DNA from: an uncultured Gemmatimonadota bacterium
Lineage (GTDB): Bacteria > JAAXHH01
DNA: 64,000 nucleotides
Assembly (NCBI GenBank): GCA_951812955.1
Contig: OX638340.1
Span: 1,024,001 to 1,088,000 of the forward strand
Direction: 5' to 3'
The notes beneath the pieces were generated by a model. It worked only from the letters and a program-made list of their open reading frames with translations. It was not told where the DNA came from and searched no databases. The position numbers and the translations under genes were made by a program. This document shows, piece after piece, positions 28,846 through 64,000 of this stretch (within the stretch, counting starts at the first letter, position 1; each line of letters begins with the position of its first letter).

Positions 28846-29090
28846 AAACCGCACCGGGTGACAGGGCTTCTACTGTCCAGTCAACATGCACCGAACGACG
28901 GAAATCCCGCGCGTATCTGCGCCGCCGCATTCCCCGCTACACCTGTTCGGGCCAAATCCTGCTTGTCGCGTTAATGCCTTGTAGTTATCATACTTACAGT
29001 GTGGAACACTATAGCGTTTCTTGACCCCTGCGGCCCTTCGATACCCGGACGAATTCACCGGCGCCGAGGAGGATCACGGAAGGACTGGAT

Positions 29091-30167: not shown

Positions 30168-30255
30168 CCAATGCGACCCTTATCGGAGACAGGTAGAAGG
30201 TGGTCCGGTCCTGGAGGAGACCGCTCAAGCCTGCTGATATCTGCCGCTCTATAAG

Positions 30256-31050: not shown

Positions 31051-31208
31051 CTGATATCCCCAGTTCTATTCAGCGGACGGGTACTCGCATCTCGGCTCGA
31101 CGCTTTAGTGTCTTTCAGCGATCAGTCATGCGAATCCACACCATATGGACAAACGCGGTGCTGCCCGACGGCATCGGCTATGGACCGATTCGACTAGGTC
31201 AACGGGGT

Positions 31209-32288: not shown

Positions 32289-34319
32289 TCAGACTTGCAG
32301 TTCGTGTCTTTGCTCGGAGATGACGAACTGCAGCTTCTTGGTCGGTTTCATAGACGGAAACGGATTGAACCGCAGCTTATAGTTTGCAGGCGACACATCG
32401 ATCTTGAAGTAGTGCGCCAGCATCAGCACGTTGACAGCCAATTGCAGTTCCATCCAACGGGTGCCGAGACACATGTGCGTGCCCAGCCCGTACGGAGCGT
32501 ACCCGGGGCTGCGATGCTCATTGCGCGACGGCAAGTAGCGGTCGATGTCGAAGGAGTGCGGGTCGGGGAAGATGTCACTCATGTAATGCGAGGCGGTCGG
32601 CGCGATGTGGATCCGTTCCCTCATGGGCAGTTCGTATCCCTCAAACACACACGTATTCATCACGTGTCGAACAGACATGGGAACGATCGGGTACATGCGC
32701 ATACACTCCATGAGGAAGCGGTGCGTGACGTCAATCGCGGATGGAGTGAAGGCCTCGATGTCCGGAACGCCGTTCCCGAATACGTCATCGGCTTCATTTC
32801 GGATTTTCTCGTAGAGTGCAGGCTGCGACGCCATGGCATAGACTACCAGACTGAACGTGTCACCAAGGTACACGCTGGCGATCAACGCCGCAGAAAAGGC
32901 AAACCGCAGGTTGGCCTCCGGGAGGAATTGCGGGTCGCTCGCGTGCAGGCTAAGGTAATCGTCCACCAGGTCCCGCGGTTTTCCGGCCCGTTGGGCGGGG
33001 GTGTGGCCCTCCTCGACTCTTTTCATCAGTGTATCAAGGGATTTCGCCCGGCGTTTCATGCCCGGGGTGTTCAGCGTGAACTCGGGCAGCATCCTGGCGA
33101 TATGCACGCTGAGCGCCCGTTCCTTGTACTGCATCAGATCGTCCATCAGGTCCTGCGTGTCGATGCCGATAAACAGGGGCGAGAGTTGGGCGTTTATCAT
33201 CTGCCGGCACATGGACGTAGCAGAATAGGAATCGCCGACATTCAAGCTTGCCATGTATTTCCAGGCATGATGGTAGAGCTTGTCCAGCTGCCCCGCAAGT
33301 CTCCCGCGTGAATACGCTGGAGACAAAGACTTGCGCAGGCGGAAATGGTCGGCGCCGTCCAGGGAAGGCAAGAGGCCGGAAGCGCCGTAGACTTTCTCGA
33401 AGTCTCTGAAATAGTCCTTGGCACTCAGGTACATGCGCCCGTGCTTATGCACCCAGCGGTTTGCCTCGGGTCCGACCAGGAAGACCATGGGCCGGGTGAA
33501 AGGAGGGCGGATCTCAAACACCGGACCGTAGTCCTGCGCAAGGTCCGCAAAGAGCGCGTGGAGGTTGCCGTCTCGAACATGCGGTTGCATCATCAGCTTG
33601 CGTAACGGTACCCTCGGAATCTTCTTTGTAAAACCGGGACGTCGAAGCGTCGGGCCGGCGAGTTTGTGGGAGACTGCTTCGGCGATGGACCGGCCGATCA
33701 CGTCCATCTTGCAGATCAACTCGATGCGTTGCTCCGTCTCGTCATCGAGTTGGAACATGAATCGAAACACATCGCACGTATTGACGAGGCAAATTACGAT
33801 AACGTCTCTCGGGTCGGGGATCTCGTTCATGAAGATCGCCCGGCTGATCCGCGTTCTGATGAACTGACTTGCAGTACTCGAATCGACATCGTTGTTCAAT
33901 TCCATCTTCCAGTCAGTACGGGCCAGCGTCCAGAACTCGCCATCGTGGTGTTCCAGGATCTTCATTTCTACCAGGCGATCCAGAACCGAATCTATAATGG
34001 TCTCCGCTCGGGGGGCCAGCCGTTCGATCCAGTACTGTGTATTGTGCTGATTTGGCTCATTTACGATTTCTTCCAGAATGAAATCGATGGTGGAATTGCC
34101 CGTTGGTGTCTGGTCGAGGACGAACAGAGACCCCGGGTCCGTGTCGATGCGAGATCTGATTGAAAGCTCCGCAAGTGCGGCACCGATTACGGCGCAGTTC
34201 AAATCCCAGCCAGGCACCTGGTGGAAGTAGCCAGTCTCCTCATTGAGGAGCATCAGGATGAGTTCCTGGGTCAAAGTAAGTGATTGGGGCTTCACGTCCT
34301 TTGCAGTATCAGCCATTAG
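32289..34319 (-). CDS. cytochrome P450 with N-terminal GPP34/GOLPH3-like domain
   Basis: Start MADTAKD (4-bp overlap with RND stop); N-terminal ~230 aa LTLTQELILMLLNEETG... resembles GPP34; C-terminal P450 with EXXR (ECMRMYP) and heme loop YGLGTHMCLGTRW. Confidence 0.75.
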   Translation of the reverse strand, partial: LMADTAKDVKPQSLTLTQELILMLLNEETGYFHQVPGWDLNCAVIGAALAELSIRSRIDTDPGSLFVLDQTPTGNSTIDFILEEIVNEPNQHNTQYWIERLAPRAETIIDSVLDRLVEMKILEHHDGEFWTLARTDWKMELNNDVDSSTASQFIRTRISRAIFMNEIPDPRDVIVICLVNTCDVFRFMFQLDDETEQRIELICKMDVIGRSIAEAVSHKLAGPTLRRPGFTKKIPRVPLRKLMMQPHVRDGNLHALFADLAQDYGPVFEIRPPFTRPMVFLVGPEANRWVHKHGRMYLSAKDYFRDFEKVYGASGLLPSLDGADHFRLRKSLSPAYSRGRLAGQLDKLYHHAWKYMASLNVGDSYSATSMCRQMINAQLSPLFIGIDTQDLMDDLMQYKERALSVHIARMLPEFTLNTPGMKRRAKSLDTLMKRVEEGHTPAQRAGKPRDLVDDYLSLHASDPQFLPEANLRFAFSAALIASVYLGDTFSLVVYAMASQPALYEKIRNEADDVFGNGVPDIEAFTPSAIDVTHRFLMECMRMYPIVPMSVRHVMNTCVFEGYELPMRERIHIAPTASHYMSDIFPDPHSFDIDRYLPSRNEHRSPGYAPYGLGTHMCLGTRWMELQLAVNVLMLAHYFKIDVSPANYKLRFNPFPSMKPTKKLQFVISEQRHELQV

Positions 34320-37300
34320 TGGCCTCCCTTCATCAGACGCAGATGAATGGTAGAAAGAGCGGGAACGACCATCATGAGTATGGCCGTGACGACGAGGATA
34401 CCGCAACCAAGCGATGCGGCAAAGGGAACCAGGAACTGAGCATGAATAGCGCGTTCCAGAATCAAGGGGGTGAAGCCGAGAAACGTAGTCAGAGAAGTAA
34501 GCATAATCGGACGAAAACGTCCCTTTGCGCCCTCTATGATCGCAGTTCGCGCCGGAGCGCCTTCCCTGAGTTTCTGATCGATGAAAACGATCATGACCAG
34601 TGAATCGTTCACAACCACGCCGCTCAGGCCGAATATACCCATGAAGGAGATTGCGCTCAGGGCTACTCCAAGGGCCCAGTGACCAAGGATCACTCCGATG
34701 AACCCGAACGGGATCACCGCCATGATGATGAACGGTTTGGTATAGGATCGTAAGGGGATGGCGAGCAGCACGAAGATCATGATCAGAGCGATCGCAAATC
34801 CGCGATACAGTGCATCCAGGGAATCGAGTTGTTGTTGTTGCTCACCTCCGAACGTGTAGGTCAGGTCCGGGTACACGGCGGTCAATTCCGCGAGGATTGA
34901 ATCCGCCAGGATGCTATTGGCCTGGTCACCGGAGATCACCGCGGCATCCACGTCCGCAGTGACCGTGACGACACGCTGACCATCCTTCCGCCGAATGGCC
35001 GGCGGCGACACGCCCGTGTTCAGCGCGGCCACACTGACGATCGGGACCTCGGCACCGGCCGGCGTACGGATCAGGTACCTTTCGATATCGGTGATGGAAC
35101 TTCGTTCATCGGCGGGCAGGCGCACGTAGACCCGAACCTCTTCACGGCCGCGCTGCACCCGGACGGCATCCGCACCGAAAAACGCGGCGCGCGTCTGTCC
35201 GGCCAACGCTTCCAGCGTGAGACCCAAAGTCCGCGCTTCCGGCCGGAGTTCAAGCTGTATTTCCGGGATACCCGGGGTGTGATCCGAACGGACATCGTAG
35301 ACGCCTGTCACTCCACGGAGACCATCGACCACCGAGTCCGCAATCCGGGCGAGTCGCACCGGATCCGGATGCGACAGCACGGCCTCGACCGGGTTGCCCA
35401 GGTCGAAGACCTCTCCGCTGAAGGTGACACCGCGCACGTAGGGCAGCACACCCACTTCCTCTCGCCATGCCTGCACAACCTCTCCGGTAGTGATCTGCCT
35501 TTGCTCCGCGCTCAGGAGTTTGAACTCGATGGTTGCAATGTTGGCCTGAGGATTAAGGGTGGGGGCTGGATTAAGCCCACCCTCGAGCCTCGAGCCCTGT
35601 CCGACGGTCACCATTACGCCGGTCAGCAGTGGTGGCGCATCCTCGGGGCGGCCGCGCGAAAGCCGATCGACGACCCGGTAACCTGCGGCCTCCAGTTCCT
35701 GTGCCACCTCGTATGTCCTTGGAGCGGTCGTCCCGTCGGGCATCTCCAGGATGACCGTCGCAAAATCCCCCTCCACGTCAGCAGCCAACGTGGTAGGTAC
35801 GATCCCCGCCGGTACCAGCGAGATACTAAGTACGAGTATTCCAACGGCCCCCCCCAGCGTGACCGCGGGCTGATCCGTCGCGAACCGTAACGCTCGGTCC
35901 AGGGGACCCTGCACGAACCGGTTCAGCGACTCGTTCACACGTCCCTGGATCCGCGCGAAGAACCGGTCGAAAGCACTTGTCGGCGTCCATTCCGGACCGT
36001 GCAAACGGGACAGGTGGTTGGGTAGTACCAGCAGTGATTCGATCAGGGAAACAAACAGTATGGCGATAAGGATGATCGGCAGTGCCCGCCATACGTCACC
36101 GACGCCTCCGGGTATGAACAGCAGCGGGACGAAAGCCACCACCGAAGTAAGGACCGCGAAGGTCAACGGCACTTTTATCCGTCGTACTCCGCGTATCGCA
36201 GCCACGACACCGGGCGTTCCCCGACTGCGTTCATATTGAATGTGCTCGGCTACGACGATGGCGTCATCGACGACAATCCCTATGGCGAGGACGAAAGAGA
36301 ACAGGCTGATGGTGTTAATAGCTACGTCGAGTACCATCATGACGGCCAATGTGCCTATACCCGAAACGGCGAGGCCGACGGCGACCCACAATGCAAGCCG
36401 GATTTCCAGAAACAGGCTGAGTGCGATCAACACCAGCAACAGACCCAGGATGCCATTCTTGACGAGAATATCGGCACGTTCCTCATAGGCTTGGGATTCG
36501 TCATTCCACATGGTGATGTGCACACCGTTCGGCAGAGCCGGGATCACCTCGTTTGCCATATGTTCCCGGACAGTCGTGGCGACGTCCATCACTTGTTCGC
36601 CGTTGGCTCGGTACACCTCGACGAATACAGCGGGATGGTTCTGATGCCGAACAATCAGGTCGGATTCCTGAAAACCATCGCGAACCCTGGCGATATCGCC
36701 AAGGCGCAAGGCAGTGCCGTCACTTCTGCTAAGCAGGATGATCTCTTCGAAATCCTGCTGGTCGTAGTTCTGGCCGAGGGTACGAACCCGCACCTGGGAT
36801 TCCCGGGTATCGATACTGCCGGCAGAAAGGTTCAGGGAACTGCGACGAATGGTATTGGCGACATCGGCGAGTGTCAGTCCAAGGGCTCTCAGCCGATGAA
36901 GCGGCACCTCGATGGAGATCTCGTATTTCCGAACACCACTGACCTCGACCTGGGACACGGACGGAAGCGCCGTGAGTCCATCCTCGATCTGATATGCCGT
37001 TTCCTTCAGCGAGCGTTCGGACACGTCGCCGTAGACGATGAACCGTATCATGCTCATACGGTTGTCCATCTCACGGAAACTGGGACGATCGGCACCGGCC
37101 GGGAAAGACTGGATGCGATTGACCGCGGACTCGATATCGTTGAGCGCCTGGACCATGTCCGTACCGAAATCCATTTGAATCCGCACGGATGCTATACCCG
37201 GGGCCGCTACAGACTTGACCGCCTTCACGTCATCCAACCCGCTGACCTGGTCCTCGATCTTGACGACGATCGACTCCTCGACCTCCTCCGGCGTGGCGCC

Positions 37301-37489
37301 GGGATAGGCCATCGACACTTCGATATGGTAGAAGGGAGTAGTGGGCCACGCTTCCCGATCGATGCCGGACAGCGAAATCAGCCCTGCGGCGACGATGGCC
37401 ATCATCAACAGATTGGCGGCCACGCTGTTGCCCGTCATGTAAGCGATCGGACCGGAAGGTTCGTTATGATTTCCGTTGTCCATACTCAT
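34316..37489 (-). CDS. RND-family efflux transporter permease (AcrB/HpnN-like, HAE)
   Basis: 1057 aa; 12-TM RND topology with two large periplasmic loops; ATGA overlap with upstream MFP gene. Confidence 0.85.
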   Translation of the reverse strand: MSMDNGNHNEPSGPIAYMTGNSVAANLLMMAIVAAGLISLSGIDREAWPTTPFYHIEVSMAYPGATPEEVEESIVVKIEDQVSGLDDVKAVKSVAAPGIASVRIQMDFGTDMVQALNDIESAVNRIQSFPAGADRPSFREMDNRMSMIRFIVYGDVSERSLKETAYQIEDGLTALPSVSQVEVSGVRKYEISIEVPLHRLRALGLTLADVANTIRRSSLNLSAGSIDTRESQVRVRTLGQNYDQQDFEEIILLSRSDGTALRLGDIARVRDGFQESDLIVRHQNHPAVFVEVYRANGEQVMDVATTVREHMANEVIPALPNGVHITMWNDESQAYEERADILVKNGILGLLLVLIALSLFLEIRLALWVAVGLAVSGIGTLAVMMVLDVAINTISLFSFVLAIGIVVDDAIVVAEHIQYERSRGTPGVVAAIRGVRRIKVPLTFAVLTSVVAFVPLLFIPGGVGDVWRALPIILIAILFVSLIESLLVLPNHLSRLHGPEWTPTSAFDRFFARIQGRVNESLNRFVQGPLDRALRFATDQPAVTLGGAVGILVLSISLVPAGIVPTTLAADVEGDFATVILEMPDGTTAPRTYEVAQELEAAGYRVVDRLSRGRPEDAPPLLTGVMVTVGQGSRLEGGLNPAPTLNPQANIATIEFKLLSAEQRQITTGEVVQAWREEVGVLPYVRGVTFSGEVFDLGNPVEAVLSHPDPVRLARIADSVVDGLRGVTGVYDVRSDHTPGIPEIQLELRPEARTLGLTLEALAGQTRAAFFGADAVRVQRGREEVRVYVRLPADERSSITDIERYLIRTPAGAEVPIVSVAALNTGVSPPAIRRKDGQRVVTVTADVDAAVISGDQANSILADSILAELTAVYPDLTYTFGGEQQQQLDSLDALYRGFAIALIMIFVLLAIPLRSYTKPFIIMAVIPFGFIGVILGHWALGVALSAISFMGIFGLSGVVVNDSLVMIVFIDQKLREGAPARTAIIEGAKGRFRPIMLTSLTTFLGFTPLILERAIHAQFLVPFAASLGCGILVVTAILMMVVPALSTIHLRLMKGGH

Positions 37490-38703
37490 GGGGTCTGGCC
37501 GACTTCCGTCTGGACGCGCATGCCTTCGGTGGTGAACCGGATCCCGCCGGTGACAACGGCCTGACCGCTTTCGAGGTCACCCGTCACATAGGCTACGTCG
37601 CCGGTTCGTTGCAGTACCTGTACCGGAACGATATGCACCACGCCGCCGTCCCGCACGATCCAGACCTCGTTGCCGGACTGCAGCGCCGCTCGCGGAACCA
37701 GGAAGTAATCATCCCGTTCAAGGCCGTCTATTTTCACTTCGACGTATTTGCCTACCAGCAGGGGAGGACTACTGCCGCCGATAGGAATCGTGCCGTCCGT
37801 GGGGCGTCCCGCTCGAAACGGATCCGGTACGCGCACAATGATGTCGATGGTACGCGTTTGCCGGTCAAGGGACGTCTCGCCGCGGTCCACATAACCTCTC
37901 CAGGCATAGGATCCTTCACCGAATCGGGCGACGACCTGCGCAGCGACTCTCCGGTTCCCGTCACCCGCCGAAAGCGACCACAACCCCGGAATCAGCGCTG
38001 CATCGGAATCGGACAGAGGCACCACGATTTCCACCGCATCTGAGGCGAAAACCCTCGCGACGGATTGACCGGCGGCGACGATCCGCCCCACGTCCACGGT
38101 TTCTTCCTGCACGTATCCGTCGAATGGCGCCGTAACTTCGGTTCTCCCCAGGGCGAGATTGGCGTCGGCAAGCCTGGCTTCGTCGCGATCCAGTGCGGCC
38201 TGGGCCGCTTTCAGTTGCGGTTCTCTAAGGGCAAGCGGGTTCGCGCCGTTTGGCGATGATACGTCCTCCTGACGGGAGGAATAAAGCGCGTGCTGCGCGC
38301 GGGCAATCGAAGCCCGTTCCTGCTCTTTGAGGAACGCCACCCGGCTGGCGGCGACGTTGGCCTCCGCTTCACGCACCCGGTGCCGGTAATCGATGTCTTC
38401 CAGCCGGAATAGCGTTTGGCCTGCGGTTATCCGTCCACCGCTCTGGAATCCCTGTTCAACCCAGACGACTTTGCCGCCGACCTGAGGAACGATATCTACT
38501 TCCGCGTCTGGCCGGACGGTACCGGATCCAAATACCGGTACGGGGCCAGACCCGGTGGCGACCGGGCCGGTCTGCACGAACGGAGTCTGGGGAGGCTGTT
38601 CCGTACGTGTCGGTTCGGGGGCCAGTGAAATCAACAGGGCGGCCAATGCCACGGAGACTCCGAGAACGCCTACTGTGACTAGAAGACTGGTAAGACGGGA
38701 CAT
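37486..38703 (-). CDS. RND efflux periplasmic adaptor (membrane fusion protein)
   Basis: 405 aa; N-terminal TM anchor, coiled-coil/lipoyl/beta-barrel MFP pattern. Confidence 0.8.
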   Translation of the reverse strand: MSRLTSLLVTVGVLGVSVALAALLISLAPEPTRTEQPPQTPFVQTGPVATGSGPVPVFGSGTVRPDAEVDIVPQVGGKVVWVEQGFQSGGRITAGQTLFRLEDIDYRHRVREAEANVAASRVAFLKEQERASIARAQHALYSSRQEDVSSPNGANPLALREPQLKAAQAALDRDEARLADANLALGRTEVTAPFDGYVQEETVDVGRIVAAGQSVARVFASDAVEIVVPLSDSDAALIPGLWSLSAGDGNRRVAAQVVARFGEGSYAWRGYVDRGETSLDRQTRTIDIIVRVPDPFRAGRPTDGTIPIGGSSPPLLVGKYVEVKIDGLERDDYFLVPRAALQSGNEVWIVRDGGVVHIVPVQVLQRTGDVAYVTGDLESGQAVVTGGIRFTTEGMRVQTEVGQTP

Positions 38704-38709
38704 GCGAAT

Positions 38710-40230
38710 TCACTCCGTTGGAAGGCGAGAGGAAGAGCGCCGACCTTGCTGATGCTGAAGGAGGCCCTCCCGGTCGGCTGCGGTCCAGGTACCGCCCAGC
38801 GCGCGATGGAGTGCCAGACGTGCGTAGCCCAGATCGCGCAATGCTGCCGAGTGTATCGATTGCGTGGCCAACCGGGACTGTTCAGCTGCCAGGAACGCTT
38901 CGTATTCCCCCACACCATACAGGTATTTTCGCTCCAGTAACGCGGATTGAGCCCGAGTTTCTTCGGTGAGGGAAACCAGCAGCGCGTGGCGCCTGCGGCT
39001 GGCTTCCAATGCCGTCAGGGCAATTTCAACCTCGTTAACCGCGGTTACCACGGCACGGCCGTATGCGGCCGCGGCCTCGTTCAACCTGGCCTCTGCCAGC
39101 GCGATGTTGCTTCGAATCCGGGAGCCCTGGAAAACGGGACCGAGCAGATTCGCAGTGAGGTTTCGGAACCATTGATCCGGATCGAACCATTCGCTTGAAT
39201 CCGTGCTCTGAAGTCCGATCGCGCCCTGCAGAGACAGCCTCGGAAGCAGGTCCGCCCGTCGCGCGCCCACCGAGAACCGTGCCGCCTCCACGCGCTGCAT
39301 GGCCGCAAGGACGTCGGGACGTTGGACCATGAGATCGGCAGGAATGCCGGCGGGAACGGGATCGAGTACGGGAGATGGAGCGGGCGCATCGGAGAGCAAG
39401 TGCGCCAGGTCGGCCCGGAAGCCACCCATGAGTATCCACAGCCGACCCTCGGCGTCCGCCCGCAGGGCTTCGATCCGCGGCAATTCCGCCTGGGCCTCAC
39501 GCAGACTTCGACGGGCGGCGTGCAGGCCGACCAGGTCGGCTAACCCGCTTTCATACCGGGACCCGGCCAGTGATTCCTGTTGTTCCAGGATCGCCACGAT
39601 TTCAAAGGCGAACCGCTGCTGCTGGCGCAGATTCACGATTTCCAGGTAGGTCCGTACGGTCTCCGCCAGCACGCCCAGGTTTGCACTCAGATAGTCCGCC
39701 TCCGTAGCCACCAACTCGGCAGCCGCGGCGCGCGTGTCGTTGCGGTTGCGGCCCCAGAAATCCAGCTCGTAGGCGAATTCAACGCTCAGGGCATAGGTCG
39801 TCAGTCCGAGCCTGTCCGGGATATCCACTCCGGCCGCGCCGAGTACGTCAGGATCCAGACCGACCTCTTCCAGTTGCGCTCCTATGCCGGCATTCGTCGG
39901 ACCGTCGGATTCGCTCACGTTCACCGTCGGCCGCAGCAACGGAAACACCGCCGACCCGGCTATGCCTTTCCGCATCCTGGCCTGATGAACTCTGGCGACC
40001 GCTCCGGCCAGGTCGAAATTAGAAGAAAGCACTTCTTCGATTACCCGGTCGAGGACCGGATCTTCGAATGACTTCCACCACTCCAGGGGTCGGTATACGC
40101 CGGAATCCTCGCTGGCAGTAAATGCGCCGGGTGTTTCCGGCACCGATTCGAGCACCGGTAGATTCCGGTTCGGAGCAAGGGAACATGCCGAGAGGAAAAG
40201 GAAAGCAAACAACGGTATTAATCGTCCCAT
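38710..40230 (-). CDS. outer-membrane efflux protein (TolC/NodT-family lipoprotein)
   Basis: 506 aa; lipobox LFLSACS; duplicated OEP repeats. Confidence 0.8.
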   Translation of the reverse strand: MGRLIPLFAFLFLSACSLAPNRNLPVLESVPETPGAFTASEDSGVYRPLEWWKSFEDPVLDRVIEEVLSSNFDLAGAVARVHQARMRKGIAGSAVFPLLRPTVNVSESDGPTNAGIGAQLEEVGLDPDVLGAAGVDIPDRLGLTTYALSVEFAYELDFWGRNRNDTRAAAAELVATEADYLSANLGVLAETVRTYLEIVNLRQQQRFAFEIVAILEQQESLAGSRYESGLADLVGLHAARRSLREAQAELPRIEALRADAEGRLWILMGGFRADLAHLLSDAPAPSPVLDPVPAGIPADLMVQRPDVLAAMQRVEAARFSVGARRADLLPRLSLQGAIGLQSTDSSEWFDPDQWFRNLTANLLGPVFQGSRIRSNIALAEARLNEAAAAYGRAVVTAVNEVEIALTALEASRRRHALLVSLTEETRAQSALLERKYLYGVGEYEAFLAAEQSRLATQSIHSAALRDLGYARLALHRALGGTWTAADREGLLQHQQGRRSSSRLPTE

Positions 40231-51146: not shown

Positions 51147-53255
51147 ATGCCAGTCAATAGCGAGCCATCCTTCAACGAAGCACTGGCACGTGTCCTCCGG
51201 TCGAAGAATCCTCGCTGGCGGGACACGCTTGCCGCAGAACAACACCAAACGCTAAAGGGTGGCGGTAGACCTGACGTAATACTGCGGAATCCGCGCGGTT
51301 CGGTGGTTGTCGTCGAGACCGAGTACGTTCCAGCCCGTACGGTTGAGACGGAAGCCAATGATCGCATCGGTCGAGAACTCAGTGATTCAGGCGTGGCTAT
51401 TGAGCAGTGTGTCGCCGTCCGAGTACCTGATTACTTAAAAACGGTCCCTCAGCACGATCTCGACACCCGTACGGCGGTGGCGACCTACGAATTCTGCCTC
51501 TTCAGCGAAACGGACAATGCCGAGGATCCTTTGCGCTGGCCTGCGGATGGTTGGATCACAGGCGCGATCAACGATCTCGCGCTCCTGATCGAAACCGCGT
51601 CGATTTCAGAACGGATCGTCGCCCAAAGCCTGGACATTCTGGAAGATGGGATAAGCGAAACTGCCGTCCAGTTGCGCGAAGCCACTAAGGACAGACCAAA
51701 CGTAAGTTCCCGCATTGCGAAAACGCTCCTGCAAGAAGACGGCGTGCAGACTTCCCGAATGGCTATGGCCATCATCGCAAATGCGCTCACTTTTCAGAGC
51801 ATGCTCGCCGGGGTCTTTCACGTAAAGACGATCGACGATCTACGCCGGAACGGAGTCATCCCAAAGTCGGCGGTCCTGCGAGAATGGAAGCGCATCCTTC
51901 GAATAAACTACTGGCCCATATTCCACATTGCGAGCGAGGTCCTCAGTCCGATTCCGGATGGCATCTCCGCTCGTTTGCTGGAAAAGTTGTCGAATGTGTC
52001 GAGCGAGTTAGAAGCACACGGCATCACCCAGTCACACGACATCTATGGGCGAATGTTCCAGCGGATGATCAGCGACAGGAAGTTCCTCGCGACGTTTTAC
52101 ACCTTGCCCACGTCGGCGACGTTGCTCGCGGAGTTGGCAGTTGAGATGATAGACGTTGAGTGGAGCGATCCTGATGAGGTGACGAAGCTTCGCACCGCAG
52201 ACTTTGCATGCGGTACGGGTACGTTGATCACGGCGCTCTATCAGGCAATGCTGGGTCGCCATCGACGTGCTGGCGGCAACGATGAGGCGATTCACAAGAG
52301 CATGATGGAGACTTCTATCTTCGCGGCCGATATCATGCCGGCGGCTACCCATCTGACCACTTCGATGTTGTCCAGTACCCATCCAACAACCCCTTTCGAG
52401 CAGACCCGTGTCCATCTCTTGCCCTACGGCCAGCAGGAGGACGACGTAGGGGCCATTACCTTCGCGCTGGGCGCGCTTGACCTGATACGAGCGCAGCACG
52501 GTACCGGACTATTCGAGAACACGGGGATCATGGTACAAAGCGGTACAGAAAGCACGCAGGACGTCATTAGAGAAGCAGGTAGATTGACGGACACATTCCT
52601 GCTTCAGCACCACTCGATGGACGTGGTTATCATGAATCCGCCCTTTACTCGCCCGACCAACCACGAAGCGACCGATGTCCCTGTACCTTCTTTTGCCGGC
52701 ATGGGAAATAATGAGGCAGAGCAGGCAGCCATGTCCCAACTTCTGAGAGATATCCGGAGGGAAATTGACGATCCCGCCGGTCACGGAAACGCCGGACTCG
52801 CGTCCAATTTCCTTGACCTCGCTGACGCCAAGATCCGTCCCGGCGGCTTGCTTGCGCTCGTGATGCCACTCAGCCTTCTTCAAGGCAACGCGTGGAAGGC
52901 AAGCCGCGACCTACTGCAGGCAAAGTATGAGAGCGCAGTGGTCGTCAGCCTAGCATCCGTAGTTCGAGACAGTGCGGTATCATTCTCGGCCGATACCGGA
53001 ATGGGAGAGGTGTTGTTGATCGCACGACGCAGAACCGTACCAGACAGTCCAGAGCACACGAAAACTGAAGAGACAGTCGATACGGTTACCTATTCGCGCT
53101 GCGAAAGCCGCCGGCATCGGGAACCGAGGCAACAGGGATCGCATCGGCGATTCGTGACGCGATCCAGCAGGGCACCTCGCGAATCGCCATTGGAAACGCC
53201 CGTTACGGTATTCTCACACGAGGTACCTGGGACGAGGGCCACTGCGCGTCAGTGA
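51147..53255 (+). CDS. Type IIG-like restriction-modification enzyme, N-terminal nuclease-like region + N6-adenine methyltransferase domain (apparently frameshifted; continues in 53252-54103)
   Basis: Motif I DFACGTGT, motif IV MNPPF (MmeI-like NPPF); last ~55 aa are Arg-rich wrong-frame read-through; the -1 frame from ~53069 reads as good protein into the next ORF. Confidence 0.6.
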   Translation: MPVNSEPSFNEALARVLRSKNPRWRDTLAAEQHQTLKGGGRPDVILRNPRGSVVVVETEYVPARTVETEANDRIGRELSDSGVAIEQCVAVRVPDYLKTVPQHDLDTRTAVATYEFCLFSETDNAEDPLRWPADGWITGAINDLALLIETASISERIVAQSLDILEDGISETAVQLREATKDRPNVSSRIAKTLLQEDGVQTSRMAMAIIANALTFQSMLAGVFHVKTIDDLRRNGVIPKSAVLREWKRILRINYWPIFHIASEVLSPIPDGISARLLEKLSNVSSELEAHGITQSHDIYGRMFQRMISDRKFLATFYTLPTSATLLAELAVEMIDVEWSDPDEVTKLRTADFACGTGTLITALYQAMLGRHRRAGGNDEAIHKSMMETSIFAADIMPAATHLTTSMLSSTHPTTPFEQTRVHLLPYGQQEDDVGAITFALGALDLIRAQHGTGLFENTGIMVQSGTESTQDVIREAGRLTDTFLLQHHSMDVVIMNPPFTRPTNHEATDVPVPSFAGMGNNEAEQAAMSQLLRDIRREIDDPAGHGNAGLASNFLDLADAKIRPGGLLALVMPLSLLQGNAWKASRDLLQAKYESAVVVSLASVVRDSAVSFSADTGMGEVLLIARRRTVPDSPEHTKTEETVDTVTYSRCESRRHREPRQQGSHRRFVTRSSRAPRESPLETPVTVFSHEVPGTRATARQ

Positions 53256-54103
53256 TAAATGCTGAACTCGTAGATACCGTGAGAAACCTGCAAGATAGCA
53301 AACTGAAATTGCCTCGAATGGCTCAAGCGTATTCGGTTCCAACAACGATGCTGGGCGAGTTGGGAAAACGGGGCTTGGTTCACCGAGATATCAATGGGAT
53401 TGAAAGAAAATCCGTTCAAGATCAACAGGAATCAAAACGGTATTTTCGCGGTCCGTTCGATATCGTACATACGACAGACGAACCGACCTTTCCGGTTCTC
53501 TGGGGACATGCCACTGACCGCGAACGTTGCATCGTGGTTCAGCCTGACAGTGCAGGAATAATTCGCGAAGACTGTGAAGACGGCGCGCACGATGCCTGGA
53601 GAACGGCGACCAGGCTCCACTTCAGTCTCGACTTTCGCCTCAACTCACAATGCCTCGCCGCGTGCCTTACTCCAACCGAAACACTGGGAGGAAGAGCATG
53701 GCCCAATTTCCAGATGGACAGCCGTAGGAATGAGACTGTTACCGCGCTGTGGGCTAACACAACGCTGGGACTGATACTGTTCTGGTGGGCAGGTACCGTT
53801 CAGCAAGCAGGACGAGCCAACCTTACCATCAGCAGGTTGCCCGAACTGCTCACGCTGGATGCGCGTACGCTGACAGACGCGCAGCACAAGCAGGTAGATC
53901 TGATCTTCAAAGAGTTTGAGAAACGCCCACTGTTGCCAGGAAACGAGGCGTATCGGGACGCGAGCCGACAGGCGCTGGATGAGGCCGTGCTCATTGGCCT
54001 CATTGGACTGCCTGAATCAATTCTCGATCCTCTCGCGGTGCTTCGCCGGCAGTGGTGCAGTGAGCCGACCGTGCATGGTGGGAAAAGTACGCGACCCAAT
54101 TGA
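53252..54103 (+). CDS. C-terminal (target-recognition-like) part of the frameshifted methyltransferase gene
   Basis: 283-aa ORF beginning with GTG; same frame is open upstream to 53069 (RDSRYGYLFALRKPPASGTEATGIASAIRD...). Confidence 0.5.
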   Translation: MINAELVDTVRNLQDSKLKLPRMAQAYSVPTTMLGELGKRGLVHRDINGIERKSVQDQQESKRYFRGPFDIVHTTDEPTFPVLWGHATDRERCIVVQPDSAGIIREDCEDGAHDAWRTATRLHFSLDFRLNSQCLAACLTPTETLGGRAWPNFQMDSRRNETVTALWANTTLGLILFWWAGTVQQAGRANLTISRLPELLTLDARTLTDAQHKQVDLIFKEFEKRPLLPGNEAYRDASRQALDEAVLIGLIGLPESILDPLAVLRRQWCSEPTVHGGKSTRPN

Positions 54104-54167
54104 ATAGTTTTACGATAGTACTCAAACCCCAAAATGCAGTTGGCTTCCATATAGCACCGCATTCTAA

Positions 54168-56870
54168 TTGATCATGAATTGCGATGGTAATATGAGTTCA
54201 TCTAAAATCAGACCTGCTGAAAAACCGCTCGCAATGTTTGTAAGTAGTGTGATGGATGATGACCTTCAACCATATCGAGATACAGCAGAATCCCTGATCA
54301 ATTCCAGGTTCCTCACGTCTTGGGTTTTCGAATACACCCCCGCGAGTTCTGAATCATTAGACGAGTCCTATTTACGACACGTAAGAAATGCGGATTTCGT
54401 AATATGGATAGGTGGTGAAAAAACATCGAATCCTGTGAAGCGGGAGGTAAATGAAGCAATCATTCATCAAAAACGCCTGTTGGTTTTTCTACTACCTGCT
54501 AACACTAGAAATGCTGGTACTGAGGAGATAATTGAGACTATCAGTTCAAACAAAGGTCCAAAGTGGTGTAAACTGGACGATCGAAATATCGAAACATTTG
54601 AGGAAGCACTTGACTATACGATACAGGACGAATTTGCTCGGGCGATTAGAAATGATCATAGTTGGCAACGAATCGGCACATTGGAACGACTAAACCGCGA
54701 CTCTCGAGCAAGGTCTTTGTCCAGATTCATGGCATCCGGCCTTTCACGAAATCAAGCAAATCGTATGTTTAAGAAGGTTTCCGATCTTCCTGTCTTAGCA
54801 TCGCCTGAGTTACCGAAAGAAGGCGAGGTGAGTTTACTTGTTGGGACGCTGGGATCCGGAAAGTCATTCACGGCTGAAAAAGTGTATCAGGAGGTCCTTG
54901 ATCAATCTAGATCTCCGTTGGCTCCTGTACCTTTCTACATAACTGCACGTCATGTTAGAAATGGTTTGGATTCTTACATCAAACAACTCAATCCTGAGTT
55001 AGGTGACGTCACTTCAATTGGCGCCTCCATAGTAATTGATCAAATTGACGATCTTCCCAATTCCGATTCACGCCGACTGTATGAAGAAGCGCTTGCTCTC
55101 ACGTTATCGTGGCCCAAGACGAGGGTTCTACTCGTTAGTCGTCCTCAGCCGTGGAGCCGAGACTGTGTTGCTACTACACATGTAAGGGAGATGTCGTTAG
55201 AGGAAGTTGAAACTGTGGTAGAACTCGTGTCGGATTCAATTCGTTCCCAGCTTCTTTGGATAATGCCTCATGCTTTACGTCGATCCGTTCAACGCCCTCT
55301 TTTCGCGATCCTGCTTGCCAAGTATCTCGAATCTAATGAAGATCAAGTTCCAATTTCTATGGCTAAGTTACTCGACCGGATGGTACGCGAAGCTGTCGAG
55401 AACGCTGGCACTGAAAGCAATCAGTCGATAGAAAAGATGCTGAGGTCTTTGGCTGTAAAACTGACAGACGGCCATGCCGATGTGAAACTGACGGATCTTA
55501 CTATACCAATATCCGATAGAAACAGACTCTTAAATACACATTTGGTATATGAGGAATCTGAACGTCTGGATTTTGCCTTGCCTATCTTGCGGCAATGGTT
55601 CGCATTTGATGCCATATGTCAAAAAGAAGTAGATATCGTAGAATTATCACTTGATGCGGGACGACTCGATAAGTGGGAAGATGTATTAACCACTGCAGTT
55701 GAACTCGCCACTAATCAGATTGATGACATAGTAGAACCCATTGTCGTCAATAACCCATCTGTAGCGTCAGTCATTCTCGACAGTGCATTCGGCCATCTGT
55801 GGTATAGTAGTCCTGATTCTGATCTATCTGCCGACACGTTCGGGAAACATATTCGAAGGGCAATGACGGCATTTGCCAAAGGCATAGGCCCTCTAAGTGG
55901 GCTAATTGCTCCTGTGAATGAACAAGGAGAAGTAAAACCGCTCGGTGTAGCCAAATTGAACGAAGGCTATTACAAGACGAGTTGGTATGAGGGATCATCT
56001 GACATAGAAAACGTAGTCGGGGTTTCTTCGGAAGATGATTTGGCGATTTCTGATTGGCCCCACATTTTCTCGCGAACAAGGATAGACTCACCTGCGTGGG
56101 CTTGGCTGGATGTCAAGCACCAGTTGAGGGAGCGTTTGGAAAAACTACTAAATTGTTACGGTTTTCCTATTCGAAATACCTTCTTCTTGCATGAATCAGC
56201 TTGGGAATTAGCATCCTCGGCATTGAACCGACATTCGCAGTTAGAACCCCAAGTCTCTAGTGATGAAATGAATGACGTGCTCCGATGGATCCAGAAAAGA
56301 CCTTCGACCATGCTTCGACAATTTAGTCCAGAGACCGTAGTGTTAGCAGCAACGTACCTACAAGGACTCATTGACAAAAACAGGCCACTCCGAGCACCGT
56401 GGCCTGGGCCTGATCAGGCTTTGTCTAGTAGTAAGTGGGTGTGGGAACTGTATTCTCCTGAGAGGCTTCGCAAAAGGCTTCAACGCGTCTTAAGTGCATC
56501 TTTAGAAATGTATCAGGAAATCGTATCCAAATGGTTTATCACTATGTCCAACAGATTCGAGTTATTTTCACTAAATCCAGTACGTCTTGTTGGTTACTTA
56601 TACGTGCCTGAAGGAAAAACTTCCGACTTGAGAAGTGAACCATCCGTAACGTTCTATTTTGAACCGATTCGGGGACATGTGTCGTCAAGTGTGGATATCT
56701 TTCTCGGTTCAATTCCGTTAGCAGAATTAGAGTCAACTGTACTTAAAGTCAATCCAAATGCTATCACAATATGTACGTCTATGGTTGTCAGTATTTTCGG
56801 CAGACGTCCAGCAACTGATCAGGCTTACGATTGGCTGAAAGACGGTTTACGTTCCGCCAAGTGGGACTAA
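54168..56870 (+). CDS. DUF4062-like N-terminal domain + P-loop (STAND/NACHT-like) NTPase + long C-terminal domain; candidate antiphage sensor
   Basis: 900 aa; markedly AT-richer than flanks; N-term MFVSSVMDDDL...ADFVIWIGGEK (DUF4062-like); Walker A GTLGSGKS, Walker B IVIDQIDD. Confidence 0.6.
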   Translation: MIMNCDGNMSSSKIRPAEKPLAMFVSSVMDDDLQPYRDTAESLINSRFLTSWVFEYTPASSESLDESYLRHVRNADFVIWIGGEKTSNPVKREVNEAIIHQKRLLVFLLPANTRNAGTEEIIETISSNKGPKWCKLDDRNIETFEEALDYTIQDEFARAIRNDHSWQRIGTLERLNRDSRARSLSRFMASGLSRNQANRMFKKVSDLPVLASPELPKEGEVSLLVGTLGSGKSFTAEKVYQEVLDQSRSPLAPVPFYITARHVRNGLDSYIKQLNPELGDVTSIGASIVIDQIDDLPNSDSRRLYEEALALTLSWPKTRVLLVSRPQPWSRDCVATTHVREMSLEEVETVVELVSDSIRSQLLWIMPHALRRSVQRPLFAILLAKYLESNEDQVPISMAKLLDRMVREAVENAGTESNQSIEKMLRSLAVKLTDGHADVKLTDLTIPISDRNRLLNTHLVYEESERLDFALPILRQWFAFDAICQKEVDIVELSLDAGRLDKWEDVLTTAVELATNQIDDIVEPIVVNNPSVASVILDSAFGHLWYSSPDSDLSADTFGKHIRRAMTAFAKGIGPLSGLIAPVNEQGEVKPLGVAKLNEGYYKTSWYEGSSDIENVVGVSSEDDLAISDWPHIFSRTRIDSPAWAWLDVKHQLRERLEKLLNCYGFPIRNTFFLHESAWELASSALNRHSQLEPQVSSDEMNDVLRWIQKRPSTMLRQFSPETVVLAATYLQGLIDKNRPLRAPWPGPDQALSSSKWVWELYSPERLRKRLQRVLSASLEMYQEIVSKWFITMSNRFELFSLNPVRLVGYLYVPEGKTSDLRSEPSVTFYFEPIRGHVSSSVDIFLGSIPLAELESTVLKVNPNAITICTSMVVSIFGRRPATDQAYDWLKDGLRSAKWD

Positions 56871-56898
56871 TTCATTCAGTTTCAGATACCTTTGATTC

Positions 56899-57900
56899 AT
56901 GGCTTACGAATCCCGTATGACCGAATTCAGGAAAGCGAGAGACCGCGGTGCCAAATACCTGCTTCGCCAGGTACACGCGGACGGCAGTTTCGGCAATCCC
57001 GTTCTCGGCGTAACCGAATACTACAAGGCGCCGGCCGCGTTTCTCGTGTGTGGACTGTCCCATGCCGCGAATCGACAGCTAAACTGGATCAGGCACAACG
57101 GCTTCCTGCCGAACGGTGATTTCGGTCCAAGACCCGCCAGCGAACGCAACAGTTACTATTACACCTACCACAATGCCTGGGTGATCAAGGCGGCCCACCG
57201 CATGGGCGCTTTCGACCTCGCCCGGCGCGGCATGGACTTCCTCCTCGGATTCCGCGACCCGGCCAGCGGCGGTTTCTACTCCCACCCGATGGCGCGCGAC
57301 GATACGACCGAGCAGGACCTGTGGGTCGTGAGCGGCATAGGCTGGTGCGCCGTTTACACCGGAAAGCTGGACGTGGCCAGGGGCATCGGCCGCTGGATGC
57401 GTCGCCTGATGGAGGATCAGCCCGATTACCCCAGTGCGTTGTGGACGGTCTACAGCCGCGACCGCGGACTGATCACCGAGGTGCTGGACGGCGACGATTT
57501 CAGGTACGTGCTGACTCGGGACGAGTCGCGCGACCAATCCTTCTACCACCCAGGCATCGCGGCTGGCTTCCTGTGCCGCCTCTACATGGCCACGGGCGAG
57601 GAGGAATGGCTGGATCTCGCGAGGGAGTACATGCGGTTCTGCGAAAACGTGGGGGACTATCACTTCAAGTTGCTGCGCGCGGGCAAGGTCGGTTGGGCTG
57701 GCGCGATGCTCTACACGCTCACGGGGGAAGTAAAGTACCGCGACATGGCGGTCAGGGTAGGAAACAACCTGGTCCAGGCCCAGTTGGCAAACGGCGCATG
57801 GGCCTGGCCGGAGATGGGGCTGACCGGACCGCACAACGACATCACGGCCGAAATGGTCGTATGGCTCGACGAGATCCACCAGGCGGTTGGCGACGGCTAG
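56899..57900 (+). CDS. prenyltransferase/squalene-oxidase-repeat (alpha/alpha-toroid) protein
   Basis: 333 aa; repeated DGSFG / SGGFY / NGAWAW motifs. Confidence 0.45.
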   Translation: MAYESRMTEFRKARDRGAKYLLRQVHADGSFGNPVLGVTEYYKAPAAFLVCGLSHAANRQLNWIRHNGFLPNGDFGPRPASERNSYYYTYHNAWVIKAAHRMGAFDLARRGMDFLLGFRDPASGGFYSHPMARDDTTEQDLWVVSGIGWCAVYTGKLDVARGIGRWMRRLMEDQPDYPSALWTVYSRDRGLITEVLDGDDFRYVLTRDESRDQSFYHPGIAAGFLCRLYMATGEEEWLDLAREYMRFCENVGDYHFKLLRAGKVGWAGAMLYTLTGEVKYRDMAVRVGNNLVQAQLANGAWAWPEMGLTGPHNDITAEMVVWLDEIHQAVGDG

Positions 57901-62369: not shown

Positions 62370-63218
62370 ATGGCGTCGCCTTACGCACATCTGTTGACCG
62401 ATAACGAAAAGTGGCATTTCGACCTTCAGGGATACCTTCACCTGCGCGGCGTGATCGCGCCGGAGCGCCTGGGCCGTATCCTGGAGGTGGTCGATCACTG
62501 GCTGTCCGCCGACGAATACGAGATCCCCGCGCCGGTTTTAAGGCATCGACAGGAGCCCTACAAGACACACCTGGACCACATCCAGTACGGGCACAGGCTG
62601 TTCCAGGAACTGAACGCCGATCCGGAGATCATCCGCGTGGTCGCGGGACTGACCATGGGCATGCCACGGCTGTTTCACTGCAACTTCACGAAAATGGACC
62701 GCGCCGCGCCGGGCGACGCGGACGTTCAGGCCTATCACAGGGATGACAGCGGCTTCAAGTTCCCCCCGGGCTTCAGGAATCCCCACAACGATTACCAGGC
62801 GGCGGGCGGGGAGATCTACTGCAGCCACCTGGCCACGTGGATCGCGCTGGCGGATGTACCGGCGGGCACCGGGTTCAGCCTGGTGCCGGGCAGCCACAAG
62901 TCGGCCTTCGGCACGCCGGACGCACTGAAAGTCGGCGACTATCTGCCCGTATCGATCACCGTGCCCATGGACGCGGGCGACGTCCTCATTTTCTCGACCC
63001 ACTTGTTGCACGATGCCGCGGCCTGGACCCAGGACTATCCCAGGATGAACATCTTCCAGCGCTATCAGTTCAGCGCCTATTTCAACGAAAGCGGCAAAGG
63101 CGGACTGCCCATCGACGAATACCGGGATCAGATCACCGAAGAGGAGTACGAACTGGAATCGCTCAGCAAAGACGAAAAGGCCGCCGTAACCCGGATGCGG
63201 CGTCACTTCGGACTGTAG
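62370..63218 (+). CDS. phytanoyl-CoA dioxygenase (PhyH) family protein (third paralog in window)
   Basis: 282 aa; YHRDDSGF... HxD, distal LLHDAA His. Confidence 0.7.
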   Translation: MASPYAHLLTDNEKWHFDLQGYLHLRGVIAPERLGRILEVVDHWLSADEYEIPAPVLRHRQEPYKTHLDHIQYGHRLFQELNADPEIIRVVAGLTMGMPRLFHCNFTKMDRAAPGDADVQAYHRDDSGFKFPPGFRNPHNDYQAAGGEIYCSHLATWIALADVPAGTGFSLVPGSHKSAFGTPDALKVGDYLPVSITVPMDAGDVLIFSTHLLHDAAAWTQDYPRMNIFQRYQFSAYFNESGKGGLPIDEYRDQITEEEYELESLSKDEKAAVTRMRRHFGL

Positions 63219-63238
63219 TCAACCCACAGGAGACGGCC

Positions 63239-63802
63239 ATGGCGTGGATACGCACCATTGACGAATCGGAAGCGGAAGGTCAACTGGAAAGAATATACCA
63301 AGGATCGATGCGATCCTGGGGAGGCGTGGACAACATCATCAAGGTCCACAGCCTGAACGTGCAGGCGCTGAGAGCGCTTATGACCTTCTACAAGGGCCTC
63401 ATGCACGGGGACTGCGACCTCACGCTGGGGCAGCGGGAGATGATCGCGACGACCGTCTCGGTTCTGAACGAGTGCGAGTACTGAATCCGCCATCATGGGG
63501 AGGGGCTCCTCAGAGAGATCGACGACAGGGAACTGGTGGATGCGATCAAGAGAGACTACCGCGAAGCGAACCTGGACGACGGCGACCGCGCCATGCTGGA
63601 CTACGTCCGGAAACTCACCCTGGCGCCCGCTTCCACTTCCGAATCGGATATCGAGCAGTTGAGGCAGGCGGGTTTCGGAGACAAGGCGATCCTGGAGATC
63701 AACCAGATCACGGGTTTCTTCGCCTGGTGCAACCGGACGGTGGACGGCCTGGGCGTGGAACTTGAGGCATTCTGGGACGAACCGAACGCGACGAATGTTT
63801 GA
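63239..63802 (+). CDS. AhpD-like/carboxymuconolactone-decarboxylase-family peroxidase-related protein with in-frame UGA (candidate selenocysteine) in the CxxC motif
   Basis: Two same-frame ORFs (63239-63484, 63536-63802) separated only by TGA 63482-63484; read-through gives ...VLNECEY-U-IRHHGEG... i.e. C-x-x-U-x-x-H-H at the AhpD CxxC...H position. Confidence 0.55.
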
Positions 63803-63812
63803 CGGATGTGTA

Positions 63813-63842
63813 GCTGCGTGGAAACCTGGAAAGTCACGCAGC
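63813..63842 (+). terminator. GC-rich hairpin (GCTGCGTG-N14-CACGCAGC) followed by T-run, possible terminator
   Basis: 8-bp perfect inverted repeat 11 nt after the AhpD-like stop; ATCGATTTT 7 nt downstream. Confidence 0.3.
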
Positions 63843-63883
63843 CGCAATCGATTTTGAATGTAGATCAGCGATTTCGGGGAATA

Positions 63884-64000
63884 ATGAGTACTTTCGAAGT
63901 CATACCGACCGGACGCGCGCTAGGCGCGGAAGTTATAGGCTTGGATCTGCGCCGCGAATTGGACGAGTATACCGTTGGCAGGCTTCGTGCGGCATTCCTC
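63884..64000 (+). CDS. TauD/TfdA-family 2-oxoglutarate dioxygenase (5' fragment, runs off window)
   Basis: MSTFEVIPTGRALGAEVIGLDLRRELDEYTVGRLRAAFL typical TauD N-terminus. Confidence 0.45.
   Translation, partial: MSTFEVIPTGRALGAEVIGLDLRRELDEYTVGRLRAAFL

Follow-up and report, generated by a model that had tools for sequence, protein, structure and literature searches.

The 64-kb stretch of DNA analysed here (the window), which is part of contig OX638340.1 of an uncultured Gemmatimonadota bacterium, carries at positions 63239-63802 of its plus strand a gene that, with a probability that we put at about 0.9, encodes a selenocysteine (Sec)-containing AhpD-like thiol/selenol oxidoreductase (TIGR01926/COG2128), in which the in-frame UGA at codon 82 specifies Sec. 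Reading and translating the sequence gives a single frame that runs from the ATG at 63239 to the TGA at 63800-63802 and comprises 187 codons, with the TGA at 63482-63484 as its sole in-frame interruption. The initial annotation, made from the letters of the sequence, had described two same-frame open reading frames (ORFs) parted only by this TGA and a product of 187 aa upon read-through. Both statements are correct, and the read-through product contains LNECEY-U-IRHHGEG around this codon. The accompanying interpretation of the gene as a candidate selenoprotein was supported by each of the proposed checks that was run.

The GC content of the read-through ORF at its three codon positions (0.60/0.39/0.79) is of the coding type. 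TGA is otherwise a normal stop codon in the window, as had been stated initially: it ends 25 of the 47 ORFs that are supported by their GC content at third codon positions (GC3). Therefore, the genome from which the window derives does not use a code with TGA as a sense codon. The codon directly after the internal TGA, ATC, cannot serve as a start, and according to the ORF table there is no in-frame start for 17 codons past the TGA, the first one being the GTG at 63536, which opens an ORF of 88 aa. On the minus strand, an antisense ORF of 214 aa (63203-63847) covers the whole AhpD-like gene; it is a shadow ORF, as its codon-position GC of 0.77/0.40/0.59 indicates. Because the TGA splits the real gene, a length-based gene caller would favour this spurious antisense ORF.

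Membership in the CMD/AhpD family, also proposed in the initial annotation, was confirmed by profile matching, for which Cys was substituted at codon 82. The protein matches TIGR01926 (‘peroxidase-related enzyme’, peroxid_rel) with 138.4 bits against a curated cutoff of 81.8, its residues 2-173 corresponding to model positions 1-173 of 178. It also matches TIGR00778, the AhpD core domain, and, over residues 43-97, the Pfam model of the carboxymuconolactone decarboxylase (CMD) family, PF02627, with 41.3 bits against a gathering threshold of 23. Membership in two families named as (seleno)proteins was rejected, since the scores are far under the curated cutoffs: NF041238 (AhpD_rel_CFYUT, ‘alkylhydroperoxidase-related (seleno)protein’) reached 44.6 bits against a cutoff of 175 and was matched at model positions 151-341 of 357 only, and NF053654 (GroundWater_YciW, YciW-related) reached 31.3 bits against a cutoff of 310. 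What the window protein has in common with these two families is a domain of the CMD/AhpD type that has Sec within a C-x-Y-U-type motif. However, the members of NF041238 are about 357 aa long and have an extra N-terminal region, whereas the window protein has 187 aa.

The closest relatives of known structure in the PDB are 2pfx (E=8e-29), followed by 6k40, 3c1l, 2oyo and 2prr (E-values up to 5e-21). They are proteins of 183-197 aa of the same family, and the match spans nearly the whole protein. All five are Cys forms; 2pfx, 2oyo, 2prr and 3c1l are described as ‘uncharacterized peroxidase-related proteins’, and no function was given by the depositors except for 6k40, which was deposited as AhpD. 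In each of them, a C-x-Y-C motif aligns to the C-x-Y-UGA of the window gene, and 62 of the 120 database homologues listed have CxxC at this place. This is what the initial annotation had claimed, namely that the UGA takes the position of the second Cys of the CxxC motif and is followed by the catalytic His.

In two characterised Cys forms, these residues belong to a proton relay, which consists of Glu118, Cys130, His132, Cys133 and His137 in Mycobacterium tuberculosis AhpD and of Glu36, Cys48, Tyr50, Cys51 and His55 in Pseudomonas aeruginosa PA0269 (PMC3141380). When the window protein is mapped against both sequences, the relay falls on Glu67/Cys79/Tyr81/UGA82/His86 with identical spacing (E-12-C-x-[HY]-C-x3-H), and E67, C79, Y81 and H86 are invariant in all 42 sequences of the orthologue set described below. 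The window protein thus appears to share the two-helix catalytic motif and the five-residue relay of these enzymes, with Sec where they have the second Cys, even though the similarity of M. tuberculosis AhpD to it is under phmmer detection at E<0.01. By analogy with the two Cys forms, the expected chemistry would be a cycle of the dithiol/disulfide type in which a peroxiredoxin or, weakly, peroxide is reduced.

A scan of one genome per species yielded 41 loci with a full-length match, which together with the window make up the orthologue set. The 41 other species belong to at least six phyla, and their proteins are 49-98% identical to that of the window. Their host labels are Latescibacterota/Gemmatimonadota (mostly metagenome-assembled genomes, MAGs, from sponges or corals), Chloroflexota, Acidimicrobiales/Actinomycetota, Cellvibrionaceae, Thermoanaerobaculia, Myxococcales and Planctomycetota. 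Two of the loci, L001 and L002, are syntenic with the window at 91-96% nucleotide identity. The complete chromosome OY762445.1 (3.9 Mb) encodes a protein with 97% identity and shows synteny at 91-94% nucleotide identity. In all 42 orthologues the Sec column is TGA, and it is never TAA, TAG or a frameshift; the terminal stops of the same genes are a mixture of TAG, TAA and TGA. Two further metagenomic contigs, L042 and L043, also have TGA at the Sec column. Up to a distance of 15 codons from the TGA the sequences are free of indels, and the ratio of nonsynonymous to synonymous substitution rates (dN/dS) is 0.03-0.40 on each side of it. Judged by these substitution patterns, both halves of the gene are under purifying selection.

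The same comparison bears on the possibility that sequencing or assembly has introduced the TGA into the window by error. Nothing speaks for such an error beyond the general possibility that exists for any single sequence, and its probability is negligible: the same TGA is found in 41 independent assemblies from different projects and species as well as in the two further contigs. With the window included, 42 independent assemblies agree, and the error that the initial annotation had named as a way in which its interpretation could fail is already refuted.

Sense codons that are one nucleotide away from TGA occur at the Sec position in three additional sequences, TTA (Leu) in L045:2154-2699 and L046:1388-1933, and AGA (Arg) in L044:99-647. 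All three retain the SECIS-type hairpin codons downstream (SECIS, selenocysteine insertion sequence) despite the sense codon, and L045 and L046 may come from one sample. A Leu or an Arg at the catalytic redox position is odd; these variants look like recent Sec-to-sense mutations or like variants from hosts in which Sec decoding has been lost. Within the orthologue set, near-identical syntenic loci (L001-L020, L022, L031) are labelled variously as ‘Gemmatimonadetes’, ‘Gemmatimonadota’, ‘Candidatus Latescibacterota’ or ‘bacterium’ in the MAG records, and the phylum assignment of this sponge- and coral-associated lineage is inconsistent across public records.

Besides the 62 Cys forms, the 120 homologues listed comprise 35 fragments that are broken at the Sec column (34 clusters of about 105 aa plus one N-terminal fragment that ends in NHCEY), 17 sequences with ‘W’ at this column, three with G, two with R and one with L. 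Both of the ‘W’ sequences that were checked at the DNA level have TGA. The closest matches in the protein search (61-75% identity) are about 105 aa long and have their first residue exactly one codon past the UGA column (MRHHGEG, MQHHGEG, VQHHGEG), and one half-gene fragment, P0026, which is named ‘peroxidase’, is found on 158 contigs. Halves of the gene account for about 29% of the homologue clusters listed, and a further 14% carry Trp at the Sec codon through mistranslation. As a consequence, a selenoprotein is systematically overlooked in the MAG annotations of these lineages. The public annotation of the AhpD-like selenoprotein family is systematically wrong in this respect, and gene callers still routinely cut the gene in two.

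These automated annotations, 34 clusters that start after the TGA and one N-terminal fragment, agree with the notion of a pseudogene or of a truly split gene, in which translation stops at 63484 and the downstream part is either untranslated or made from an internal start. However, such a split is highly improbable for several reasons: the interruption lies at the identical column in 42 species and is always TGA, within one continuous frame in the 41 species compared with the window; the low dN/dS values hold for both halves; Cys79 and His86, which belong to one catalytic helix, would be parted; and an internal start in the window could not yield residues 83-99, among them the catalytic His, because no start codon is present for 17 codons after the TGA. 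A separate gene for the C-terminal half, which the initial annotation had listed as contrary evidence, is thereby ruled out.

The predicted recoding of the UGA as Sec finds further support in the hairpin downstream of it. The initial annotation had pointed to a small hairpin, GGGGAG-GGG-CUCCUC at 63497-63511, as a possible part of a SECIS element. The two arms (63497-63502 and 63506-63511) are present, and one more U-A pair lengthens the hairpin to 63496-63512, giving a stem of 7 bp and a total of 17 nt; it begins 11-12 nt after the UGA, and its loop is 18 nt from the UGA. In 41 of the 42 sequences, a hairpin of 6-8 bp with a G-rich loop follows the UGA at a distance of 11-12 nt. To what extent the encoded peptide would produce such stems by itself was calculated by exact enumeration of the synonymous codings of H-G-E-G-L-L-R, weighted by the codon usage of these same genes. 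Stems of at least 6 bp are observed in 41/42 sequences (10% expected) and stems of at least 7 bp in 35/42 (0.9% expected). The codons that form the stem are seldom used in the rest of these genes (GGG 16%, CUC 19%, AGA 4%, CAU 18%).

Synonymous variation tells the same story. Among 93 amino-acid-conserved degenerate codon columns, taken from one alignment with a shared phylogeny, those of the stem rank lowest in the gene for synonymous entropy (Mann-Whitney p=0.005 versus the 86 other conserved codon columns). Leu91 is CUC in 40/40 sequences, whereas other conserved Leu columns are CUG-dominated and use 5-6 different codons. Gly87 is limited to GGG or GGA, and the loop codon, Gly89, takes all four codons. 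In seven genomes an alternative hairpin, GGAGAA-GGUC-UUCUCC, is formed at the same place in a register shifted by one nucleotide, and the sub-clade of L043 and L044 has yet another one there, ACGGAG-CGGGU-CUCCGU. Because of the excess of stems over the synonymous expectation and the lowest entropy at the stem codons, we conclude that the hairpin is under selection at the RNA level. With its fixed distance from the UGA, its conservation and its maintenance by codon choice, the proposed role as part of a SECIS is supported.

At residues 87-90 (63497-63508), which follow the catalytic HH, most TGA forms have the peptide G-[EA]-G-L and a few have A-E-G-L or G-E-A-L. Most Cys forms have AEAL, GEAL or SEAL at these residues, and a few have a similar x-x-G-L. 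Apparently the hairpin limits which residues the protein can have here, a case of dual coding.

Bacterial SECIS elements are stem-loops that directly follow the UGA and bear a G in a small apical loop (PMC1088965). The window hairpin is like them in being located within the coding region, immediately 3' of the UGA, and in having a small G-containing apical loop. It differs from the archetypal bacterial SECIS in that its family has no conserved bulged U and that an outer helix is found in some lineages only, and from the SECIS elements of E. coli fdhF and fdnG in being much shorter (17 nt with 7 bp, while the fdhF element has about 40 nt). The bSECIS consensus model of Zhang and Gladyshev from 2005 is said to allow UGA-to-loop distances of 16-37 nt, a range that includes the 18 nt of the window. 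An outer helix is not claimed as part of the window's element; in a fixed 15-pair structure it is paired in a minority of the sequences, and it is weak in the window's clade.

Several results weigh against a Sec-encoding gene with a functional SECIS. Regarding the hairpin, its folding energy is unexceptional when compared with dinucleotide shuffles (z=-0.22) or with synonymous recoding (mean z=-0.63 over the 42 sequences), and as neither z-score is significant, folding energy was dropped as evidence for a SECIS. Pairwise covariation within a fixed structure is not significant, with 60 of 500 shuffles reaching the observed score. No relevant Rfam match was found, either in the whole window at the gathering threshold or in 63400-63620 at E<=10, the sole match being a chance one to a snoRNA. 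The conserved G-E-G-L-L peptide could account for part of the hairpin conservation, and the Cys control is suggestive, not clean: four Cys-form homologues form 3-5 bp only at the equivalent codons, but one of them, P0005, has an unrelated strong hairpin a little further downstream. With respect to the machinery, no tRNA-Sec was detected by ARAGORN in the window or in the 41 flanks, stretches that are a small fraction of each genome; no SelA, SelB or SelD domains were found by Pfam in the 47 window ORFs, which represent 64 kb of the genome only; and tblastn with E. coli SelA, SelB and SelD gave no match in the 810 kb of window plus flanks, a small part of the genomes. Lastly, no conserved redox partner gene adjoins the AhpD-like gene across phyla. 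In the consensus structure calculated by RNAalifold there are 4 bp only.

P0005 (L051:451-1065) is the closest Cys homologue (50% identity). Its 7-bp hairpin, GAGCCUC-CGGA-GAGGCUC, lies about 19 nt after the Cys codon; it could be what is left of a SECIS after a change from Sec to Cys, or could have arisen by chance in GC-rich sequence.

Some of these results would fit a situation in which Sec is inserted, but the hairpin at 63496-63512 is not a functional SECIS, its conservation being a by-product of the H-G-E-G-L-L peptide and local codon bias, and some other element recruiting SelB. This is consistent with the non-significant folding-energy z-scores and single-structure covariation, with the shortness of the 7-bp stem and with the restriction of the outer helix to some lineages. 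However, we consider it unlikely, as the stems of at least 7 bp, so far above their 0.9% expectation, use codons that are rare in the same genes; the synonymous entropy is lowest at the stem codons while the loop codon varies freely; three different sequence solutions hold the hairpin at the same distance from the UGA; and the loop always contains a G, as for bacterial SECIS elements (PMC1088965).

As for the Sec machinery, its lack in the stretches at hand is the absence of a test and not a negative result, because these stretches cover a small fraction of each genome. ARAGORN found no tRNA of any kind in the window. No second gene with an in-frame TGA was found in the window and flanks, in which only adjacent same-frame genes and antisense shadow ORFs turned up.

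It could also be argued that a near-cognate or suppressor tRNA reads the UGA as a standard amino acid, be it Trp, Cys or Gly, that no Sec is involved, and that the hairpin is a generic stimulator of read-through. In addition to the Sec machinery not being found in the available sequence of window and flanks, two observations agree with this: some gene callers translate codon 82 as W, and there are sense variants one nucleotide away from TGA, AGA in L044 and TTA in L045/L046. We nevertheless regard this explanation as quite unlikely. TGA is the normal stop of about half of the window genes, including the terminator of this very gene, and a genome-wide reassignment is therefore excluded. The codon is located at the redox-active Cys of CxxC, a hallmark of Sec/Cys pairs, in a family that is catalogued as a selenoprotein family. 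Moreover, decoding as Cys should have allowed TGT or TGC to take the place of TGA frequently, yet all 42 sequences keep TGA across phyla.

According to the mechanism that we propose for Sec insertion, the stem-loop at 63496-63512 would act in the mRNA as a bacterial SECIS during translation. SelB would bind to it, and recruitment of SelB-GTP-Sec-tRNA(Sec) to the ribosome would lead to the insertion of Sec instead of termination; we infer that selenium is incorporated at UGA-82 in this way. Sec82 would take the place of the second Cys of the AhpD CxxC within the relay Glu67-Cys79-Tyr81-Sec82-His86 and would cycle between a selenolate and a Cys79-Sec82 selenenylsulfide. By analogy with the Cys forms, the substrate of the protein may be peroxide or, more likely, an oxidised partner protein, e.g. 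a peroxiredoxin or a similar thiol protein, which it would reduce.

A more radical idea is that the UGA is not decoded by the canonical SelA/SelB/SelD/tRNA-Sec system in all lineages; Cys, for example, or another residue might be inserted via a non-canonical tRNA, with the hairpin as a minimal, lineage-portable recoding signal. We think this very unlikely. In its milder version, the coding need of the hairpin would have reshaped the protein, and this would agree with the G-[EA]-G-L peptide tracking the TGA forms and with the hairpin having been re-invented in at least three sequence registers.

A Sec-containing AhpD-like protein is not new. In 2005, 27 Sargasso Sea sequences of an AhpD-like protein (COG2128, CxxU) were reported as a new selenoprotein family (Zhang, Fomenko & Gladyshev; PMC1088965). 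‘AhpD-like 1’ was the fourth most abundant family in the Global Ocean Sampling (GOS) data, with 299 sequences and 902 Cys homologues (PMC2398784), and the prokaryotic selenoprotein catalogue of 2026 includes an ‘AhpD-like protein, TIGR01926, CxxU’ (PMC13188914). AhpD-like selenoproteins also occur in sequenced genomes and in Olavius symbionts. The claim of the initial annotation that AhpD-like proteins with Sec in this motif are an established family is therefore in agreement with the literature. Classification as a selenoprotein family has been based on at least two Cys homologues and no fewer than two distinct sequences that carry a conserved in-frame TGA (PMC1976440, PMC1088965); in our data there are 62 Cys homologues, and TGA is conserved in the 42 orthologues plus L042 and L043.

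The window gene shares with the AhpD-like family (COG2128/YciW, TIGR01926) the hidden Markov model family, the CxxU motif in which Sec is the second redox residue, the presence of one Sec per protein, a SECIS-like stem-loop that directly follows the UGA and whose small apical loop contains a G, and widespread Cys homologues. No difference was found, the published examples having been compared by model, motif and description. Since every sequence-level criterion of the AhpD-like family applies to it, the window gene is, as far as its sequence goes, an ordinary member, and the finding is already known. Biologically this is a routine confirmation, as AhpD-like CxxU proteins rank with the most abundant selenoproteins of the sea and entered the catalogues two decades ago. 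Its practical value lies in the correction of truncated or mistranslated database entries, and the 42-species alignment would in addition present a minimal SECIS hairpin that is embedded in, and constrains, the codons beside the catalytic His. The host lineage names Gemmatimonadetes and Latescibacterota are not mentioned in the 2026 selenoprotein literature that was searched for them. The gene probably marks the sponge-associated host, whether labelled Gemmatimonadetes or Latescibacterota, as selenium-using.

Table 1. Positions in the window of the AhpD-like gene, its predicted active-site codons and hairpin, and the genes beside it.
Feature	Position	Strand	Basis or remark
PhyH-family Fe(II)/2-oxoglutarate dioxygenase gene, upstream	62370-63218	+	Pfam PhyH; ends 20 nt before the AhpD-like start
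Shine-Dalgarno-like GGAGA	63229-63233	+	5 nt 5' of the ATG at 63239-63241; read from the sequence
Complete AhpD-like (TIGR01926) predicted selenoprotein ORF, 187 codons including UGA-82	63239-63802	+	Profile matches, codon-position GC, full-length orthologues in 41 species
Glu67 codon, proton-relay Glu (M. tuberculosis AhpD Glu118, PA0269 Glu36)	63437-63439	+	12 residues before the first Cys; 42/42
Cys79 codon, first residue of CxxU (first Cys of AhpD CxxC)	63473-63475	+	42/42
Tyr81 codon, relay position (PA0269 Tyr50, M. tuberculosis AhpD His132)	63479-63481	+	42/42
In-frame UGA, predicted Sec82 (M. tuberculosis AhpD Cys133)	63482-63484	+	TGA in 42/42; Cys in 62 homologues and five PDB structures
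His86 codon, catalytic His four residues past Sec	63494-63496	+	42/42; third base opens the hairpin stem
SECIS-like hairpin: UGGGGAG (63496-63502), loop GGG (63503-63505), CUCCUCA (63506-63512)	63496-63512	+	Encoded by codons H86-G-E-G-L-L-R92
Terminal stop codon TGA	63800-63802	+	Sequence read, orthologue comparison
TauD/TfdA-family dioxygenase gene start, downstream, cut by the window end	63884-64000	+	L001 orthologue has 229 bits on Pfam TauD

The AhpD-like gene is located between two dioxygenase genes (Table 1). It probably forms one operon with the upstream PhyH gene, and the TauD-family gene follows on the same strand after about 80 nt. The PhyH - AhpD-like - TauD synteny is limited to the window's clade, and the neighbours in other phyla are unrelated. 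Unlike in the M. tuberculosis AhpD system, no ahpC adjoins the gene in the window; an AhpC/Redoxin gene is adjacent in L045/L046 only.

After the terminal TGA, 27 in-frame sense codons run into the ATG at 63884 of the TauD-like gene, and a perfect 8-bp inverted repeat (63813-63820 and 63835-63842) begins 10 nt after this TGA. An extra stop is found in L001 and L002 three codons past the terminal TGA, and most other orthologues end in TAG. Read-through of the terminal TGA into the TauD gene was rejected in view of these close relatives with an extra stop or different terminal stops. The inverted repeat and the open frame are probably a coincidence or a terminator-like hairpin.

Elsewhere in the window, a Sterol_MT_C methyltransferase gene (31209-32252, minus strand; PF08498 with 56.7 bits, plus CMAS) is situated near genes for a Rieske/KshA_C oxygenase (29091-30167) and a flavin amine oxidase (27466-28845), and the region 27466-32252 may be a bacterial sterol- or lipid-modifying cluster. 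An ORF of 702 aa at 51147-53255 has no Pfam match. The approximately 3.6 kb that follow it (53255-56899) have a GC content of 0.51, as compared to about 0.60, and contain no ORF that reaches the GC3 coding threshold; the stretch 51147-56899 may be foreign or non-coding DNA. A TolC/AcrB/HlyD efflux system is encoded at 34316-40230, which is consistent with a diderm host.

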